In this document: positions 2,790 to 33,661 of the stretch, in pieces
Layout: every line of letters starts with the position of its first letter
How positions within the stretch are numbered: position 1 is the stretch's first letter
NCBI RefSeq assembly: GCF_016903815.1
Contig: NZ_CP069973.1
DNA from: Escherichia coli
Lineage (GTDB): Bacteria; Pseudomonadota; Gammaproteobacteria; Enterobacterales; Enterobacteriaceae
Reading direction: 5' to 3' (one strand)
DNA: 64,000 bases
Program-made: the position numbers and the translations under genes
The notes under the pieces: model-generated
Database searches by the model: none
The model's input: the letters and a program-made list of their open reading frames with translations, nothing else
Told to the model about the DNA's origin: nothing

Positions 2790-3520
2790 TCTTCTCTGCC
2801 GCTTTTTTTGTGCACAGAAAACCCCCAGCTAGGCTGGGGGTTCCGGAAAGCTTTCAGCTTTAAGCCAGTTATTAAAACCCCTTTTGATTTGTTAAAACAC
2901 CTTGCGGTCTGGCAACTGCAAGTGTCAAACAAGAAATCAAAAGGGGGTCCCAATGGGGAACGAAAAGAGCTTAGCGCACACCCGATGGAACTGTAAATAT
3001 CACATAGTTTTTGCGCCAAAATACCGAAGACAGGTGTTCTACAGAGAGAAGCGTAGAGCAATAGGCAGTATTTTGAGAAAGCTGTGTGAGTGGAAAAGTG
3101 TACGGATTCTGGAAGCTGAATGCTGTGCAGATCATATCCATATGCTTGTGGAGATCCCGCCCAAAATGAGCGTATCCGGCTTTATGGGATATCTGAAAGG
3201 GAAAAGCAGTCTGATGCTTTACGAGCAGTTTGGTGATTTGAAATTCAAATACAGGAACAGGGAGTTCTGGTGCAGAGGGTACTACGTCGATACGGTGGGT
3301 AAGAACACGGCGAAGATACAGGATTACATAAAGCACCAGCTTGAAGAGGATAAAATGGGAGAGCAGTTATCGATTCCCTATCCGGGCAGCCCGTTTACGG
3401 GCCGTAAGTAACGAAGTTGGATGCAAATGTCAGATCGTGTGCGCCTGTTAGGGCGCGGCTGGTAAGAGAGCCTTATAGGCGCATTTGAAAAACCTCCGGC
3501 TATGCCGGAGGATATTTATT
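2790..3520 (+). mobile_element. IS200 (IS200/IS605 family) insertion sequence, boundaries approximate
   Basis: Perfect hairpin cccccagctagctggggg (about 2822-2843), a second long stem-loop ccccttttgatt...aatcaaaagggggt spanning the tnpA ribosome-binding site, a 152 aa Y1 transposase and a right-end hairpin (cctccggctatgccggagg); the nagE-glnS spacer is about 0.7 kb longer than I recall for K-12. Confidence 0.85.
2953..3411 (+). CDS. tnpA: IS200 transposase TnpA (HUH/Y1 family)
   Basis: Translation MGNEKSLAHTRWNCKYHIVFAPKYRRQVFY...HIHMLVEIPP... with the HxH (HUH) motif; near-identical to Salmonella IS200 TnpA as I recall it. The ORF-track entry starts upstream at 2902; the ATG at 2953 is the homologous start. 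Confidence 0.9.
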   Translation: MGNEKSLAHTRWNCKYHIVFAPKYRRQVFYREKRRAIGSILRKLCEWKSVRILEAECCADHIHMLVEIPPKMSVSGFMGYLKGKSSLMLYEQFGDLKFKYRNREFWCRGYYVDTVGKNTAKIQDYIKHQLEEDKMGEQLSIPYPGSPFTGRK

Positions 3521-25410: not shown

Positions 25411-28400
25411 ATGAGTGGAAAACCGGCGGCGCGTCAGGGCGACATGACGCAGTATGGCGGTAGCATTGTCCAGGGTTCAGCCGGGGTGCGCATCGGTGCC
25501 CCCACCGGCGTGGCCTGTTCGGTGTGCCCCGGCGGGGTGACGTCCGGCCATCCGGTCAATCCGCTGCTCGGCGCGAAGGTCCTTCCCGGAGAAACCGACC
25601 TTGCCCTGCCCGGCCCGCTGCCGTTCATCCTCTCCCGCACCTACAGCAGTTACCGGACAAAAACGCCCGCGCCGGTGGGGAGCCTCGGCCCCGGCTGGAA
25701 AATGCCTGCGGATATCCGCTTACAGCTGCGCGATAACACACTGATACTCAGTGATAACGGCGGCAGAAGCCTGTATTTTGAGCACCTGTTTCCCGGTGAG
25801 GACGGTTACAGCCGCAGCGAGTCACTCTGGCTGGTGCGCGGCGGTGTCCTGAAACTGGATGAAGGTCACCGGCTGGCCGCACTCTGGCAGGCGCTGCCGG
25901 AAGAACTCCGCTTAAGTCCGCATCGTTATCTGGCGACGAACAGTCCGCAGGGGCCGTGGTGGGTACTCGGCTGGTGTGAGCGGGTGCCGGAGGCGGATGA
26001 GGTGCTGCCTGCGCCGCTGCCGCCGTACCGGGTACTGACCGGGCTGGTGGACCGCTTCGGGCGCACACAGACGTTCCACCGTGAGGCTGGCGGCGAAATC
26101 ACCGGCGTGACGGATGGTGCCGGGCGTCACTTCCGGCTGGTACTGACCACGCAGGCGCAGCGGGCAGAAGAAGCCCGGCAGCAGGCCTCTTCCGGCGGGA
26201 CGGAACCGTCCGCTTTTCCTGATACCCTGCCGGGTTACACCGAATATGGCCGGGACAACGGCATCCGTCTGTCTGCCGTGTGGCTGACGCACGACCCGGA
26301 ATACCCGGAGAATTTACCTGCCGCGCCGCTGGTGCGCTATGGCTGGACGCCACGCGGCGAACTGGCGGCGGTGTATGACCGCAGCAATACACAGGTGCGC
26401 AGCTTTACTTACGATGATAAATACCGGGGCCGGATGGTGGCGCACCGTCACACGGGCCGGCCGGAAATCCGTTACCGTTACGACAGCGACGGGCGGGTGA
26501 CAGAACAGCTAAACCCGGCAGGCTTAAGCTACACGTATCAGTATGAGAAAGACCGCATCACCATCACCGACAGTATGGACCGCCGTGAAGTGCTGCACAC
26601 GCAGGGCGAAGGCGGGCTGAAGCGGGTGGTGAAAAAGGAACACGCGGACGGCAGCGTCACGCAGAGTCAGTTTGATGCGGTGGGCAGGCTTAAGGCACAG
26701 ACGGATGCCGCAGGCCGGACGACTGAGTACAGCCCGGATGTGGTGACGGGACTCATCACGCGCATCACCACACCGGATGGCAGGGCATCGGCATTTTACT
26801 ATAACCACCACAACCAGTTAACGTCAGCCACCGGGCCTGACGGGCTGGAAATACGCCGGGAATATGATGAATCCGGCCGTCTGATTCAGGAAACCGCACA
26901 CAACGGCGATATCACCCGCTACCGTTATGATAATCCACACAGTGACTTACCCTGCGCAACGGAAGATGCCACCGGCAGCCGGAAAACCATGACATGGAGC
27001 CGTTACGGTCAGTTGCTGACCGTCACTGACTGTTCCGGTTATGTAACCCGTTATGACCATGACCGTTTTGGTCAGGTGACGGCGGTGCACCGCGAGGAAG
27101 GGCTGAGTCAGTACCGCGCATACGACAGCCGTGGACAGTTAATTGCGGTGAAAGACACGCAGGGCCATGAAACGCGGTATGAATACAACGCCGCCGGTGA
27201 CCTGACCGCCGTCATTGCCCCGGACGGCAGCAGAAACGGGACACAGTACGATGCGTGGGGAAAGGCCATCCGTACCACACAGGGCGGTCTGACGCGCAGT
27301 ATGGAATACGATGCTGCCGGACGGGTCATCCGCCTGACCAGTGAAAACGGCAGCCACACCACCTTCCGTTACGATGTACTCGACCGGCTGATACAGGAAA
27401 CCGGCTTTGACGGCCGCACACAGCGTTATCACCACGACCTGACCGGCAAACTTATCCGCAGCGAGGATGAGGGGCTGGTCACCCACTGGCACTATGACGA
27501 AGCAGACCGCATCACACAGCGAACGGTGAATGGTGAAACCGCAGAACAGTGGCGGTACGACGAACGCGGCTGGCTGACACAAATCAGCCATCTCAGCGAA
27601 GGCCACCGGGTGACGGTGCATTACGGGTATGATGAGAAAGGCCGCCTGACCGGTGAGCGCCAGACGGTGCATCACCCGCAGACGGAAGCACTGCTCTGGC
27701 AGCATGAAACCAGACACGCTTACAACGCGCAGGGACTGGCGAACCGCTGTATACCGGACAGCCTGCCCGCCGTGGAATGGCTGACTTACGGCAGCGGCTG
27801 GCTGGCAGGCATGAAACTCGGCGACACACCGCTGGTGGATTTCACCCGCGACCGCCTGCACCGGGAAACGCTGCGCAGCTTCGGCCGTTATGAACTCACC
27901 ACCGCTTATACCTCTGCCGGGCAGTTACAGAGCCAGCACCTGAACAGCCTGCAGTATGACCGCGATTACACCTGGAACGACAACGGCGAACTCATCCGCA
28001 TCAGCAGCCCGCGCCAGACCCGGAGTTACAGCTACAGCGACACCGGCAGGCTGACCGGCGTCCACACCACGGCAGCGAACCTTGATATCCGCATCCCGTA
28101 TGCCACGGACCCGGCGGGCAACCGCCTGCCCGACCCGGAGCTGCACCCGGACAGCCCCCTCAGCGCATGGCCGGATAACCGTATCGCCCGTGACGCGCAC
28201 TATCTTTACCGGTATGACCGTCACGGCAGGCTGACGGAGAAAACCGACCTCATCCCGGAAGGGGTTATCCGCACGGATGATGAGCGGACTCACCGGTACC
28301 ATTACGACAGCCGGCACCGGCTGGTGCACTACACGCGGACACAATATGCAGAGCCGCTGGTCGAAAGTCGCTATCTTTACGACCTGCTGGGCCGCAGGGT

Positions 28401-29550
28401 GGCAAAACGGGTATGGCGGCGTGAACGGGACCTGACGGGCTGGATGTCGCTGTCATGGAAACCGGAAGTGCCCTGGTACGGCTGGGACGGCGACCGGCTG
28501 ACCACAATACAGAACGACAGAACCCGCATCCAGACGGTTTATCAGCCGGGGAGCTTCACGCCACTCATCAGAGTTGAAACTGCCACCGGTGAGCTGGCGA
28601 AAACGCAGCGCCGCAGCCTGGCGGATGCGCTTCAGCAGTCCGGCGGTGAAGACGGTGGCAGTGTGGTGTTCCCGCCGGTGCTGGTGCAGATGCTCGACCG
28701 GCTGGAAAGTGAAATCCTGGCTGACCGGGTGAGTGAGGAAAGCCGCCGCTGGCTGGCATCGTGCGGCCTGACGGTGGAGCAGATACAAAACCAGATGGAC
28801 CCGGTGTACACGCCGGCGCGAAAAATCCACCTGTACCACTGCGACCATCGCGGCCTGCCGCTGGCGCTTGTCAGCACGGAAGGGGCAACAGAATGGTGCG
28901 CAGAATACGATGAATGGGGCAACCTGCTGAATGAAGAGAACCCGCATCAGCTGCAGCAGCTCATCCGCCTGCCGGGTCAGCAGTATGATGAGGAGTCCGG
29001 CCTGTATTACAACCGCCACCGCTATTATGACCCGCTGAAGGGGCGGTATATCACTCAGGATCCGATTGGACTGAAGGGGGGATGGAATTTTTATCAGTAT
29101 CCGTTAAATCCGATCTCAGAGATAGACCCACAAGGGTTAAATCCGTTAATTCTTAGTGTTGTAGCACTGATGAGTTGCGGTTTGTTTTCATCAGGTGGTG
29201 TTATCCAAAGTGGGCAACAACGCAGAGATCAATATGGCCGTAAAGTTAATCCAGAAGCCGACAAATTAACAGATGAACATAAGTCAGGTGTAAATCCTGG
29301 TGGTAACTGTAGTCCCCAGAACCTGAGTGACTTACAAAATGAAAAAAACAGATTATGTAACCAGTCTAGAGCTTGCGCTCCTCAGATGCTGAGAAAAGAA
29401 ATATTGAGACGGTACGAGATAAATTTGGCGTGCGCTTCGGTCAGAAAGCAGATTAATAATCAGTGCTTTGGTGGTGGAGATAAGGCCCATATGGAAGAAG
29501 AGAATAAAGCATATAAAACAGCAGCTGATTGCAGTGGCTTAATAAAATGA
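25411..29550 (+). CDS. rhsC: Rhs-family polymorphic toxin: YD-repeat shell, PxxxxDPxGL core boundary, variable C-terminal tip
   Basis: 1379 aa; GC-rich YD/RHS repeat core with an N-terminal region close to K-12 RhsC as I recall it; core ends at ...[14 protein letters not shown] (about 29139), followed by a roughly 136 aa AT-rich tip. Confidence 0.9.
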
Positions 29551-30050
29551 AAAAAATAATTTTCTCTAACGAGAGTGCAGTCTATGATGAACTTATGATT
29601 CATTTCCCATGCCAGCCATTACCTCATATTTCAAATGATATTACAGGGCTGGAGGAACTGGATATTGTATATAATTTTTTCCAAAAGAAACAATGGAATG
29701 AAATAGCCAACAATTTTAAAATAAAGGATGACTCTTATGCTTTAGAGTTAGGAATTACATTCCTCCCTGAGAAAGTATTCTGCTATTACATCCCTCTGTA
29801 TATTTATGCCTCGTTGTTTAATAAGAATGATTTTTGGGTTTTTGAATCCGATTTTATTCAACAATATTTATGTCCTGAGTATCGGGATCACGATGATTTT
29901 TTGAATTTTGTTTTTAATTTTTCAGATATACAACTATCTATTATTGCACAGTTTATGTCTTATGAATCAGACGCTGGATTCTTTTATGCAAGTAAAGCTT
30001 GTATGGATTTTTGGGAAGATTATTCACCTCTATTACATAAGAAAATTTAA
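29547..30050 (+). CDS. putative cognate Rhs immunity protein
   Basis: 167 aa ORF ([20 protein letters not shown]...) whose ATG overlaps the rhsC stop (ATGA); AT-rich like the toxin tip; the position and coupling are typical of rhsI genes. An in-frame ATG at 29529 is an alternative start. Confidence 0.6.
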
Positions 30051-30102
30051 TCGTAAAAGGTATAAATGGTTTAATAAAAAACTTGTCTACTCGTTGGAGT
30101 AG

Positions 30103-30720
30103 ATGAAAAATAAGATGACGTTGGCATATAGATCACTGCGAATAATCCACCTCTACCACTGCGACTATCGCGGCCTGCCGCTGACGCTTATCAGCCCTGA
30201 CGGGGCAACAGAATGGTGCGCAGAATATGATGAATGGGGCAACCTGCTGACTGAAGAGAACCCGCAGCACCTGCAGCAGCTTATCCGTCTGCCGGGGCAG
30301 CAGTATGATGAGGAGTCCGGCCTGTATTACAACCGCCACCGCTATTATGACCCGCTGCAGGGGCGGTGTATCACTCAGGATCCGATTGGGCTGGAAGGCG
30401 GGTGGAATCAGTATGTATATGCTTCCATACATCCAACCTATTCTATTGATCCGCTGGGCTTAATTGATAAACCTGCTCCAGTATTCAATCGAGAACTAAA
30501 TTCAGATGCGTATTATCTTGCCGTAAATAATTGCTATTCATATGCTCTAAATAGGTATGGAAATCCTGGGAGTAGGATTTTTGGCGGCGGAGGATTACAA
30601 CCTGGAGAATTATCTGGAAAAGAGTTTTCTAAACTCACTTGTAGTAGTATTTTTGAAGCGTCAAAAAATGATGGTGCCAAGGACAGGGAAAGATCATCAG
30701 AAGTACACTTTTTGTACTAA
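30103..30720 (+). other. orphan Rhs C-terminal tip fragment (core-end homology plus an alternative toxin domain); lacks the Rhs core and a credible start of its own
   Basis: Translation ...[35 protein letters not shown]...[17 protein letters not shown]...IDPLGL then an unrelated 85 aa tail; nucleotides 30141-30408 are about 92% identical to rhsC 28821-29088 by eye. Confidence 0.8.
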
Positions 30721-30759
30721 ATAATTCGCATTTTATGTTTAAAAATTGAGATATTCCTC

Positions 30760-31700
30760 ATTACCTGAAGCTGTTTTTTATTGCTTATACATGATCAAAT
30801 ACTCCTTACATAATTAAGGAGAACAAAATGGAACTTAAAAAATTGATGGAACATATTTCTATTATCCCCGATTACAGACAAGCCTGGAAAGTGGAACATA
30901 AATTGTCGGATATTCTACTGTTGACTATTTGTGCCGTTATTTCTGGTGCAGAAGGCTGGGAAGATATAGAGGATTTTGGGGAAACACATCTCGATTTTTT
31001 GAAGCAATATGGTGATTTTGAAAATGGTATTCCTGTTCACGATACCATTGCCAGAGTTGTATCCTGTATCAGTCCTGCAAAATTTCACGAGTGCTTTATT
31101 AACTGGATGCGTGACTGCCATTCTTCAGATGATAAAGGCGTCATTGCAATTGATGGAAAAACGCTCCGGCACTCTTATGACTAGAGTCGCCGCAGGGGAG
31201 CGATTCATGTCATTAGTTCGTTCTCAACAATGCACAGTCTGGTCATCGGACAGATCAGGACGGATGAGAAATCCAATGAAATTACAGCTATCCCTGAACT
31301 TCTTAACATGTTGGATATTAAAGGAAAAATTATCACAACTGATGCGATGGGTTGCCAGAAAGATATCGCAGAGAAGATACAAAAACAGGGCGGTGATTAT
31401 TTATTCGCTGTAAAAGGAAACCAGGGGCGGCTAAATAAAGCCTTTGAGGAAAAGTTTCCGCTGAAAGAATTAAATAATCCAGAGCATGGCAGTTACGCAA
31501 TGAGTGAAAAGAGTCACGGCAGAGAAGAAATCCGTCTTCACATTGTTTGCGATGTCCCTGATGAACTTATTGATTTCACGTTTGAATGGAAAGGGCAGCC
31601 ATGGACAGAAACTACCTGACGTCAGTCCTTGCGGGGAGCGGGCTTTCGTAATCTTGCCCTGCTACAACAGGATTAACTTCACAAATATCATTTCCCAACG
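30760..31700 (+). mobile_element. H-repeat (ISAs1-family) element remnant, boundaries approximate
   Basis: Encodes an H-repeat-associated transposase-like protein ([57 protein letters not shown]...), as found beside Rhs elements in E. coli. Confidence 0.75.
30828..31619 (+). pseudogene. H-repeat-associated (ISAs1 family) transposase, disrupted
   Basis: Two same-frame ORFs (30828-31184 and 31230-31619) separated by an in-frame TAG at 31182-31184; the 3' part is shortened relative to full-length H-rpt proteins as I recall them, with the conserved C-terminal MDRNYL...SVLAGSGLS segment in a different frame after 31610. Confidence 0.75.
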
Positions 31701-31736
31701 TCTACACTTACTCCTGTAAACCGTTCAGGAGCAGTA

Positions 31737-32246
31737 ATGAATCAGCAACGATTTGATGACAGCACCCTAATCCGTATCTTCGCCCTTCATGAGTTACATC
31801 GACTGAAAGAACATGGCTTAACGCGCGGGGCACTCAACGATTATCACAGCCGCTATAAACTCGTCTTTCTGGCCCATTCCCAGCCCGAGTACCGCAAACT
31901 TGGCCCGTTTGTGGCTGATATTCACCAGTGGCAAAATCTGGATGACTATTACAACCAGTACCGCCAACGCGTAATTGTTTTGCTTTCTCACCCTGCCAAC
32001 CGGCGTGATCATACTAACGTTTTGATGCACGTTCAGGGATATTTTCGCCCACATATTGATTCCACAGAACGCCAGCAGCTGGCGGCGCTTATCGACAGTT
32101 ATCGCCGTGGCGAGCAACCGCTTCTTGCGCCGCTGATGCGTATCAAACACTATATGGCGTTTTATCCTGACGCCTGGCTTTCAGAGCAGCGTTATTTCGA
32201 ACTTTGGCCGCGTGTGATTAACTTGCGCCATGCAGGAGTTTTATGA
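31737..32246 (+). CDS. ybgA: DUF1722 protein YbgA
   Basis: 169 aa; overlaps the phr start (ATGA); recognised as YbgA. Confidence 0.9.
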   Translation: MNQQRFDDSTLIRIFALHELHRLKEHGLTRGALNDYHSRYKLVFLAHSQPEYRKLGPFVADIHQWQNLDDYYNQYRQRVIVLLSHPANRRDHTNVLMHVQGYFRPHIDSTERQQLAALIDSYRRGEQPLLAPLMRIKHYMAFYPDAWLSEQRYFELWPRVINLRHAGVL

Positions 32247-33661
32247 CTACCCATCTGGTCTGGTTTCGCCAGGATTTACGTCTGCACGATAATTTCGCAC
32301 TGGCTGCCGCTTGCCGCTATTCGTCTGCACGCGTGCTGGCGTTGTATATCGCTACACCACGCCAGTGGGCGGCGCATAATATGTCGCCGCGTCAGGCTGA
32401 ATTTATCAATGCACAACTGAACGGGCTACAAATCGCGCTGGCGGAAAAAGGCATTCCTTTGCTGTTTCATGAAGTGGATGACTTTGCCGCCAGCGTCGAA
32501 ATAGTTGAACAGGTGTGCGCGGAAAATCGTGTTACCCATCTGTTTTATAACTATCAGTATGAGGTGAATGAGCGGGCGCGGGATGTGCAGGTTGAGAGAA
32601 CGCTGCGTAACGTGGTGTGTGAAGGATTTGATGACAGCGTGATCCTGCCGCCTGGCGCGGTGATGACTGGCAATCATGAGATGTACAAAGTCTTTACGCC
32701 TTTTCAAAATGCCTGGCTGAAACGGCTGCGAGAAGGGATGCCGGAGTGCGTCGCTGCGCCAAAAGTACGTAGTAGCGGAATGATAGAACCCGCGCCATCC
32801 ATTACGCTGAATTATCCTCGTCAGCCTTTCGATACTGCGCATTTCCCGGTGGAAGAAAAAGCGGCGATTGCGCAATTACGCCAGTTTTGCCAGAACGGTG
32901 CCGGAGAGTATGAGCAACAAAGAGATTTTCCGGCTGTTGAAGGTACCAGCCGTTTGTCCGCCAGCCTGGCAACGGGCGGGTTATCGCCTCGCCAGTGTCT
33001 GCATCGCCTGTTGGCGGAACAGCCGCAGGCGCTGGACGGTGGGGCCGGTAGTGTCTGGCTTAGTGAGCTGATCTGGCGCGAGTTCTACCGTCATCTGATG
33101 ACGTATTACCCCTCGTTGTGTAAACATTGTCCGTTTATTGCCTGGACGGATCGTGTGCAGTGGCAGAGCAATCCCGCACATTTACAGGCCTGGCAGGAAG
33201 GCAAAACGGGATACCCGATTGTCGATGCTGCCATGCGTCAGCTTAACAGCACTGGCTGGATGCATAACAGGCTACGGATGATTACAGCCAGTTTTCTGGT
33301 GAAAGATTTGTTGATCGACTGGCGCGAAGGCGAGCGATATTTCATGTCGCAGCTGATTGATGGTGATTTGGCAGCTAATAACGGTGGCTGGCAGTGGGCC
33401 GCTTCAACCGGAACCGATGCAGCGCCGTATTTTCGTATTTTTAACCCGACAACCCAGGGCGAGAAATTTGACCGCGAAGGCGAGTTTATCCGCCAGTGGC
33501 TACCGGAACTGCGCGATGTGCCAGGGAAAGTGGTGCATGAGCCGTGGAAGTGGGCGCAGAAAGCAGGTGTGACGCTGGATTATCCGCAACCGATAGTTGA
33601 TCACAAAGAGGCAAGGCTGCGAACGCTGGCAGCGTACGAAGAAGCGAGGAAAGGAGCCTGA
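32243..33661 (+). CDS. phr: deoxyribodipyrimidine photolyase
   Basis: 472 aa MTTHLVWFRQDLRLHDN...; photolyase FAD-binding domain motifs (WREFY, GWMHNRLRM). Confidence 0.95.
   Translation: MTTHLVWFRQDLRLHDNFALAAACRYSSARVLALYIATPRQWAAHNMSPRQAEFINAQLNGLQIALAEKGIPLLFHEVDDFAASVEIVEQVCAENRVTHLFYNYQYEVNERARDVQVERTLRNVVCEGFDDSVILPPGAVMTGNHEMYKVFTPFQNAWLKRLREGMPECVAAPKVRSSGMIEPAPSITLNYPRQPFDTAHFPVEEKAAIAQLRQFCQNGAGEYEQQRDFPAVEGTSRLSASLATGGLSPRQCLHRLLAEQPQALDGGAGSVWLSELIWREFYRHLMTYYPSLCKHCPFIAWTDRVQWQSNPAHLQAWQEGKTGYPIVDAAMRQLNSTGWMHNRLRMITASFLVKDLLIDWREGERYFMSQLIDGDLAANNGGWQWAASTGTDAAPYFRIFNPTTQGEKFDREGEFIRQWLPELRDVPGKVVHEPWKWAQKAGVTLDYPQPIVDHKEARLRTLAAYEEARKGA

Follow-up and report, generated by a model that had tools for sequence, protein, structure and literature searches.

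The window, a stretch of 64,000 nucleotides, covered the nagB-sdhA region of the E. coli chromosome. Alignment to the K-12 element H-rptB showed that positions 30684..31661 (+ strand) correspond to the remnant of an H-rpt/ISEc1-like element of the ISAs1 family, which carries the gene ybfD. The same locus was present with 100% identity in strain 7/2, which differed from the window by 58 SNPs across the first 50 kb; there it bears the RefSeq label 'ybfD: ISAs1 family transposase' and is recorded as a pseudogene with the flags 'internal stop; incomplete; missing C-terminus'. Its neighbours in strain 7/2 were an Rhs core protein and its downstream genes on one side and ybgA-phrB-dtpD on the other. 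The window locus was orthologous to K-12 ybfD, since it lay at the right end of RhsC, directly upstream of ybgA-phr, and agreed with the K-12 gene in its right flank and its deletion junction. When 5426 complete E. coli genomes were searched by megablast with positions 30721-31736 (1016 bp) as the query, the locus was detected in essentially all of them, with 100% identity over the 1016 bp in at least 30. The feature is already known: the locus, the IS family and the pseudogene annotation are all on record. Zhao et al. in 1993 and Hill et al. in 1994 reportedly described the H-repeats of RhsC as defective forms of an IS-like element of 1291 bp. Elsewhere, the near-identical strain 7/2 has an annotated IS200C (IS200/IS605 family) transposase gene between nagE and glnS, at coordinates that correspond to window 2953-3411.

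The features of the locus, in order of position, were as follows.

30103..30720, + strand: orphan Rhs C-terminal tip, comprising the core end and toxin CT (PF03527, NF041261 positions 1143-1261, TIGR03696)
30684..31661, + strand: H-rpt/ISEc1-like remnant with the gene ybfD; homology to H-rptB begins and ends exactly here, and the flanks vary among copies
30684..30699, + strand: left inverted repeat (IRL), CAGGGAAAGATCATCA, read from the sequence; the same end is found in the H-rptB, EDL933 and 0H18 copies, which have other flanks
30828..31181, + strand: ybfD codons 1-118, with the DDE_Tnp_1_assoc domain and the first catalytic Asp (AIDGK, D109), from PF13808, NF033564 and the family alignment
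31182..31184, + strand: amber codon TAG in place of AAG (Lys119), from the alignment and an exact 61-mer in 96 records
31185..31596, + strand: ybfD codons 120-256, which encode the central part of the DDE domain, including the second catalytic Asp (TTDAMG, D172); PF01609 positions 31-139/200, D172 invariant
31589..31604, + strand: deletion junction, between 31596 and 31597; 313 bp missing, 2-bp GC microhomology (GAAAGGGC / GAAAAGC)
31597..31619, + strand: frame-shifted read-out (Q)PWTETT*, from translation past the junction, with TGA at 31617-31619
31601..31651, + strand: native C-terminal 16 codons and stop, out of frame, matching YhhI residues 363-378 (MDRNYLASVLAGSGLS)
31646..31661, + strand: right inverted repeat (IRR), TCGTAATCTTGCCCTG; the flanks of different copies diverge directly past ...CCCTG
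31662..31698, + strand: 37 bp from IRR to where the RhsC element ends on the right; from 31699 onwards RhsC-less genomes are homologous again
31737..32246, + strand: ybgA (DUF1722), first gene of ybgA-phr, directly downstream of the element

The window copy was 978 bp in length, compared to 1291 bp for the intact K-12 H-rptB, which spans CAGGGAAAGATC to AATCTTGCCCTG in the alignment. The ends of the element were set by comparing copies with different flanks, in which the common sequence ran exactly to these ends and no further. IRL agreed with the reverse-complemented right end at 12/16 positions, including 10/11 at the start, so that the window copy has short imperfect inverted repeats at both ends. 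IRR was identical to that of H-rptB, and the left end departed from H-rptB only past the first 16 bases of IRL. A repeat search with a 6-base seed did not report these terminal repeats; they were missed because they are too short and imperfect for such a seed, the longest exact run being 5 bases.

Domain searches supported the description of the gene in an earlier note, made from the sequence alone, as an H-rpt transposase gene. The N-terminal ORF, the ATG of which is preceded at a distance of 7 nt by a Shine-Dalgarno sequence (AAGGAG), matched PF13808 (E=7.9e-35, residues 8-94) and positions 1-90/314 of NF033564, and the second ORF matched positions 31-139/200 of PF01609 (E=2.9e-13). The conceptual read-through product matched NF033564 with E=1e-86, which places it among the ISAs1-family transposases. 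Instead of the single ORF of an element of ~1.2-1.3 kb, the 978-bp window copy had a TAG at 31182 and a frame shift at 31596/31597.

Lesions in the transposase gene

The two ORFs of the remnant, at 30828-31184 (118 codons plus the TAG) and 31230-31619, were in one reading frame, and straight translation of 30828-31619 gave the TAG at 31182-31184 as the sole stop; this agreed with the earlier note, which had described two H-rpt ORFs in the same frame split only by that codon. The amber codon was located ten codons past the first conserved aspartate. At the matching position, K-12 ybfD, the intact K-12 yhhI gene and six further alleles had AAG (Lys119).

Alignment to the 1291-bp H-rptB mapped a second lesion, a 313-bp deletion after window base 31596, which in yhhI extends from the second base of codon 257 to that of codon 361. 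A length of 313 bp is not divisible by 3, so the reading frame shifts at the junction; this yields a CAG codon followed by PWTETT* and displaces the last 17 native codons from the reading frame. The C-terminal peptide was encoded from 31601 (2 mod 3), compared to 0 mod 3 for the ORFs. The proposal that the C-terminal segment was retained in another frame as the result of an internal deletion was therefore borne out, although the frame change, which had been placed after about 31610, was put some ten bases too late, the junction being at 31596/31597. The alignment to an intact H-rpt that had been suggested as a check showed that the gene is not intact, with 313 bp missing and AAG changed to TAG.

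The consequences of the deletion were examined by comparison with the intact YhhI protein (378 aa), which matched positions 3-200/200 of PF01609 and 1-314/314 of NF033564 (transpos_ISAs1). The conceptual amber-suppressed product (263 aa) covered only 3-139/200 and 1-229/314 of these models, respectively. It matched YhhI over residues 1-256 only and was without residues 257-361, so that 122/378 native residues were missing. The family alignment comprised eight full-length ISAs1-family transposases, namely YhhI and seven diverse members from plasmids (ISAs1, ISKpn31, ISAsp2, ISKpn9, ISRm21, a Tistrella element and a Rhodococcus element), which were 30-47% identical to YhhI. D109 (AxDGK) and D172 (DA) were invariant in this alignment, and the motif H-W-x-[IV]-E-N-x-x-H, which includes E306 of YhhI, was present in 8/8 proteins. 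The HWxxENxLHWxLD block that includes E306 fell within the deleted 313 bp and was absent from the window product; of the three conserved acidic residues, D109 and D172 were present and E306 was gone. The HWxxEN glutamate is the third catalytic residue of the DDE transposases in this superfamily, and from its place in the alignment E306 is probably that residue. A PDB sequence search carried out with YhhI for a solved relative gave only chance CheY matches (E about 1).

From these comparisons we infer that amber suppression cannot yield an active transposase. The earlier note had suggested that most of the protein could be recovered by suppression, and that the element is on this account decaying rather than fully dead; for transposase function this view was not supported, because the suppressed product is without the catalytic segment. 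The most likely function of ybfD is none, and at most a 118-aa N-terminal fragment is made. The reading that we prefer, to which we assign a probability of roughly 0.9, is that ybfD is the RhsC-linked H-repeat, a non-functional ISEc1-like (ISAs1 family) remnant at the right end of RhsC, upstream of ybgA-phr.

Distribution and age of the deletion and the amber codon

The deletion junction was base-for-base identical in seven alleles, those of K-12 ybfD and of strains Br_167, H15, 95NR1, CH423, MSHS133 and ETEC1720. To count carriers of the deletion, a 351-bp query covering the junction, the right end and the start of ybgA was compared to 60 evenly spaced records of complete E. coli genomes; 34/60 (about 57%) matched the junction and the ybgA flank as one uninterrupted piece. 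This query superseded a 60-base junction query, which was unreliable because SNPs break the 28-base megablast word and because intact copies are joined as two pieces.

The amber codon was found, as an exact 61-mer, in 96 records in the search of the 5426 genomes. Its carriers included WCHEC96200, which belongs to ST405 and phylogroup D (PMC5762679), and WCHEC4533, which was part of an ST405 genome comparison (PMC9037040). The closest sampled non-carrier allele was that of Br_167, which had the same arrangement and 98.6% identity over the 351-bp query; its codon 119 was AAG, and its codon 65 was a separate TAA stop (E65*).

Other alleles of the deleted gene carried further lesions. A Q18* change was present in 95NR1 and CH423, two 1-bp insertions were found in MSHS133, a frameshift at codon ~20 was among the N-terminal lesions of other lineages, and in ETEC1720 an IS1 had inserted into the deleted ybfD. 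Three codons before the junction, a TGG to TAG change (W254*) was shared by K-12, H15, 95NR1, CH423, MSHS133 and ETEC1720, and because of this change K-12 YbfD is annotated as a protein of 253 aa. The window lineage and Br_167 retained TGG at codon 254 (window 31587-31589). The occurrence of many different secondary knock-outs on one common deletion allele points to neutral decay after the founding lesion. Values of dN/dS between copies (0.14-0.35) were dropped as uninformative, because most differences predate inactivation.

As judged from the alleles compared, the deletion is probably old and the amber codon a recent second lesion in a gene that was already dead. Such a history would begin with an old 313-bp internal deletion at a 2-bp microhomology, which would have taken residues 257-361, including the HWxxEN motif with E306, and shifted the last 17 codons. 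The deleted allele would then have spread through, or been inherited by, a large part of E. coli, including K-12, after which the dead gene may have gathered lineage-specific neutral lesions. In the window lineage, a clinical one, this lesion would be the AAG to TAG change at codon 119 (K119*), the named carriers of which include ST405 strains (phylogroup D).

The many independent second lesions on one common deletion provide a clean, small example of neutral pseudogene decay, and both the allele K119* and the arrangement with one H-rpt copy between an orphan Rhs tip and ybgA are usable as lineage markers. The locus should carry a pseudogene label, as it does in RefSeq, and its amber codon is not to be interpreted as a switch, whether regulatory or suppressible. 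Beyond such annotation hygiene the significance of the locus is small.

Flanking DNA and possible residual roles

On the right side, UTI89 and other B2 genomes matched only from query position 250, which corresponds to window position 31699. In the RhsC-less B2 strains UTI89 and 536 there was no Rhs or H-rpt DNA next to ybgA, and RhsC-less genomes had in common with the window only 38 bp before the ybgA ATG, with the ybfA terminator further upstream. Since only these 38 bp are common, transcription of ybgA-phr in RhsC+ strains must start in, or read through from, Rhs/H-rpt-derived DNA, and this observation favours the idea that ybgA-phr has taken over the remnant as its upstream or promoter region. 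However, no promoter-like match was found on the + strand of 31400-31736, and EDL933 and the uninterrupted arrangements described below (L022/L023) have different DNA upstream of ybgA, which indicates that no particular H-rpt sequence is required. Co-option, which would in any case be compatible with a dead coding sequence, is considered unlikely.

On the left side, IRL cut the orphan Rhs tip at 30683/30684, and the last 12 codons and stop of the tip lay within H-rpt DNA. In the O158:H23 strain CFIAFB20140388 and in AST20, the same tip formed the end of a full RhsC protein, extended 223 bp further, and was followed by a gene for a 124-aa immunity-like protein and then by ybgA; no H-rpt was present there. 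When compared to this uninterrupted arrangement (L022 2230-3357), the window was without ~806 bp, namely the remainder of the toxin together with the immunity gene, and had 18 unmatched bases after IRR. There was no target-site duplication, as the flanking sequences, ...GGTGCCAAGGA on the left and CTACAACAGG... on the right, were not repeats. The missing DNA, the unmatched bases and the lack of a duplication argue for an IS-end-associated deletion or recombination, not a simple insertion, and the IRL junction could be a trace of IS-end activity.

The left junction has a bearing on whether the remnant is a non-autonomous element that can be mobilised in trans by an intact ISEc1 transposase. Both IRL and IRR are present, whereas K-12 ybfD is without its first 24 bp, and the precise IRL junction with the loss of ~806 bp of neighbouring DNA resembles an adjacent deletion mediated by an IS end. 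A chimeric query also revealed, in genomes of the window lineage, two further places with the 313-bp segment, that is, two non-deleted H-rpt copies. Against mobilisation, the 275-bp orphan CT that abuts IRL at the ybgA-side locus was single-copy in 283/283 genomes that have it, which gives no sign of movement of the element. Many DDE transposases, moreover, act preferentially in cis. H-rpt is included in ISfinder, though no transposition of it has been observed (PMC3032704); a second paper (PMC10711316) was rejected as a source on ISEc1 activity, as it deals with ISEc12. Mobilisation in trans therefore appears quite improbable.

The Rhs genes to the left showed several features of their own. 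In the rhs core gene at 25411-29550, 39/40 of the listed SNPs between the window and strain 7/2 (58 SNPs over 50 kb) fell within 26793-28167, and this patch, at 26793-~28200, looks like gene conversion between rhs paralogues, not point mutation. A 272-bp direct repeat, 90-92% identical, was formed by 28818-29088 in the main rhs gene and 30138-30408 in the orphan tip, and corresponds to the conserved Rhs core end. A duplicated Rhs core end is the usual substrate for recombinational tip switching. The gene that follows the main Rhs toxin (29529/29547-30050, 167-173 aa), which is presumed to encode an immunity protein, matched DUF6714 at 23.8 bits compared to a cut-off of 27, and there was no NCBIfam match. 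The orphan toxin cut from its immunity gene and the conversion patch in the rhs core are of interest for Rhs tip switching, but do not represent new kinds of biology.

A further residual role would be that of the 118-aa N-terminal fragment, which, if produced, might regulate or inhibit the non-deleted ISEc1 copies in trans. Truncated transposases that act as inhibitors, such as Tn5 Inh and IS1 InsA, provide a model for such a putative fragment. The ATG is intact, the AAGGAG sequence is appropriately close upstream, the TAG comes only after the complete PF13808 domain, and the two places with the 313-bp segment in the lineage mean that potential target copies exist. However, promoter-like matches were at chance level in a promoter and terminator scan, as were the terminator matches, and a DNA-binding role of PF13808 is assumed. 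The N-terminal region has also been knocked out elsewhere (Q18*, E65*, the frameshift at codon ~20 and the IS1 insertion); its destruction in other lineages indicates that it is not conserved as a gene. An Rfam scan of 29000-33000 matched no RNA family. A regulatory fragment is thus very unlikely, and there is little chance that ybfD is other than inert, whether because its N-terminal domain damps the two non-deleted ISEc1 copies or because the 978-bp element is mobilised in trans.

It was also considered whether the gene is only conditionally off, so that with a suppressor tRNA or read-through of UAG the protein would be largely restored, along with some transposase function. The TAG is the sole stop between 30828 and 31616, the two halves are in the same frame, and 256/378 residues would be native. 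The product would nevertheless be incomplete, ending at 263 aa without the invariant HWxxEN glutamate and the remainder of residues 257-361, and the deletion is tolerated alongside many other knock-outs in other lineages. The search for amber-suppressor tRNAs suggested in the earlier note covered the tRNAs of the window, glnV/glnX in strain 7/2 and tRNA-Tyr (CUA). Within that scope the result was negative. ARAGORN found no tRNA within the window, the glnX-glnV cluster being located ~6 kb before the window begins; both tRNA-Gln(CUG) genes (glnV/glnX) of strain 7/2 had the wild-type anticodon CTG, which means that there is no supE there; and the supF allele (tRNA-Tyr, anticodon CTA) was matched exactly by none of the 5426 genomes, each of which agreed with the supF query at 84/85 positions and so validated its sequence. 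Restoration of the gene by suppression or read-through is highly improbable. Finally, a sequencing or assembly error at the TAG, a finding by which the earlier note would have been refuted, was ruled out by the recurrence of the identical 61-mer in 96 independently assembled complete genomes and by the complete identity of the whole 1016-bp locus in at least 30.

Comparison with named relatives

In EDL933 (O157:H7), an H-rpt that is also a pseudogene adjoins ybgA, but this copy is full length (1137-nt ORF, W20*) and has other left and right flanks. Full-length yet inactivated H-rpt copies (W20*, frameshift) were observed beside ybgA in both 0H18 (L005 1857-3525) and EDL933 (L004 2235-3525). 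They were considered as the undeleted ancestor at the same site and rejected, because their flanks differ and they represent separate arrangements. The presence of such copies with different flanks suggests that the right end of RhsC has been rebuilt several times.

The ISAs1 family, as represented by ISAs1, ISKpn31, ISKpn9, ISAsp2 and ISRm21, shares with the window copy the DDE_Tnp_1_assoc and DDE_Tnp_1 architecture. Its members keep the AxDGK, DA and HWxxEN motifs, whereas the window copy keeps only the first two and has neither a target-site duplication nor signs of mobility.

H-rptB/ISEc1, which encodes K-12 YhhI (378 aa), has the same ends as the window copy and differs from it by 19 nucleotides and 7 amino acids over the first 256 codons. 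In contrast to the 978-bp window copy, with its stop at codon 119 and its loss of residues 257-361, H-rptB is 1291 bp in length and has one uninterrupted ORF.

Another of the closest known counterparts was K-12 ybfD (b0706, annotated as 'H repeat-associated putative transposase'), a truncated ISAs1-family gene that adjoins ybgA at the same locus and shares the right flank and the junction of the 313-bp deletion. Mean column identity to the window was 97% over ~1 kb including short flanks, with 36 nucleotide differences in the 768-bp coding part. K-12 ybfD differs in having AAG at codon 119 and TAG in place of TGG at codon 254, so that its annotated CDS is 253 aa, and in the absence of the first 24 bp including IRL. 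It follows two further defective H-rpt copies (ybfQ, ybfL) and ybfC; unlike K-12, the window has a single copy, the intact IRL of which abuts an orphan Rhs toxin tip.
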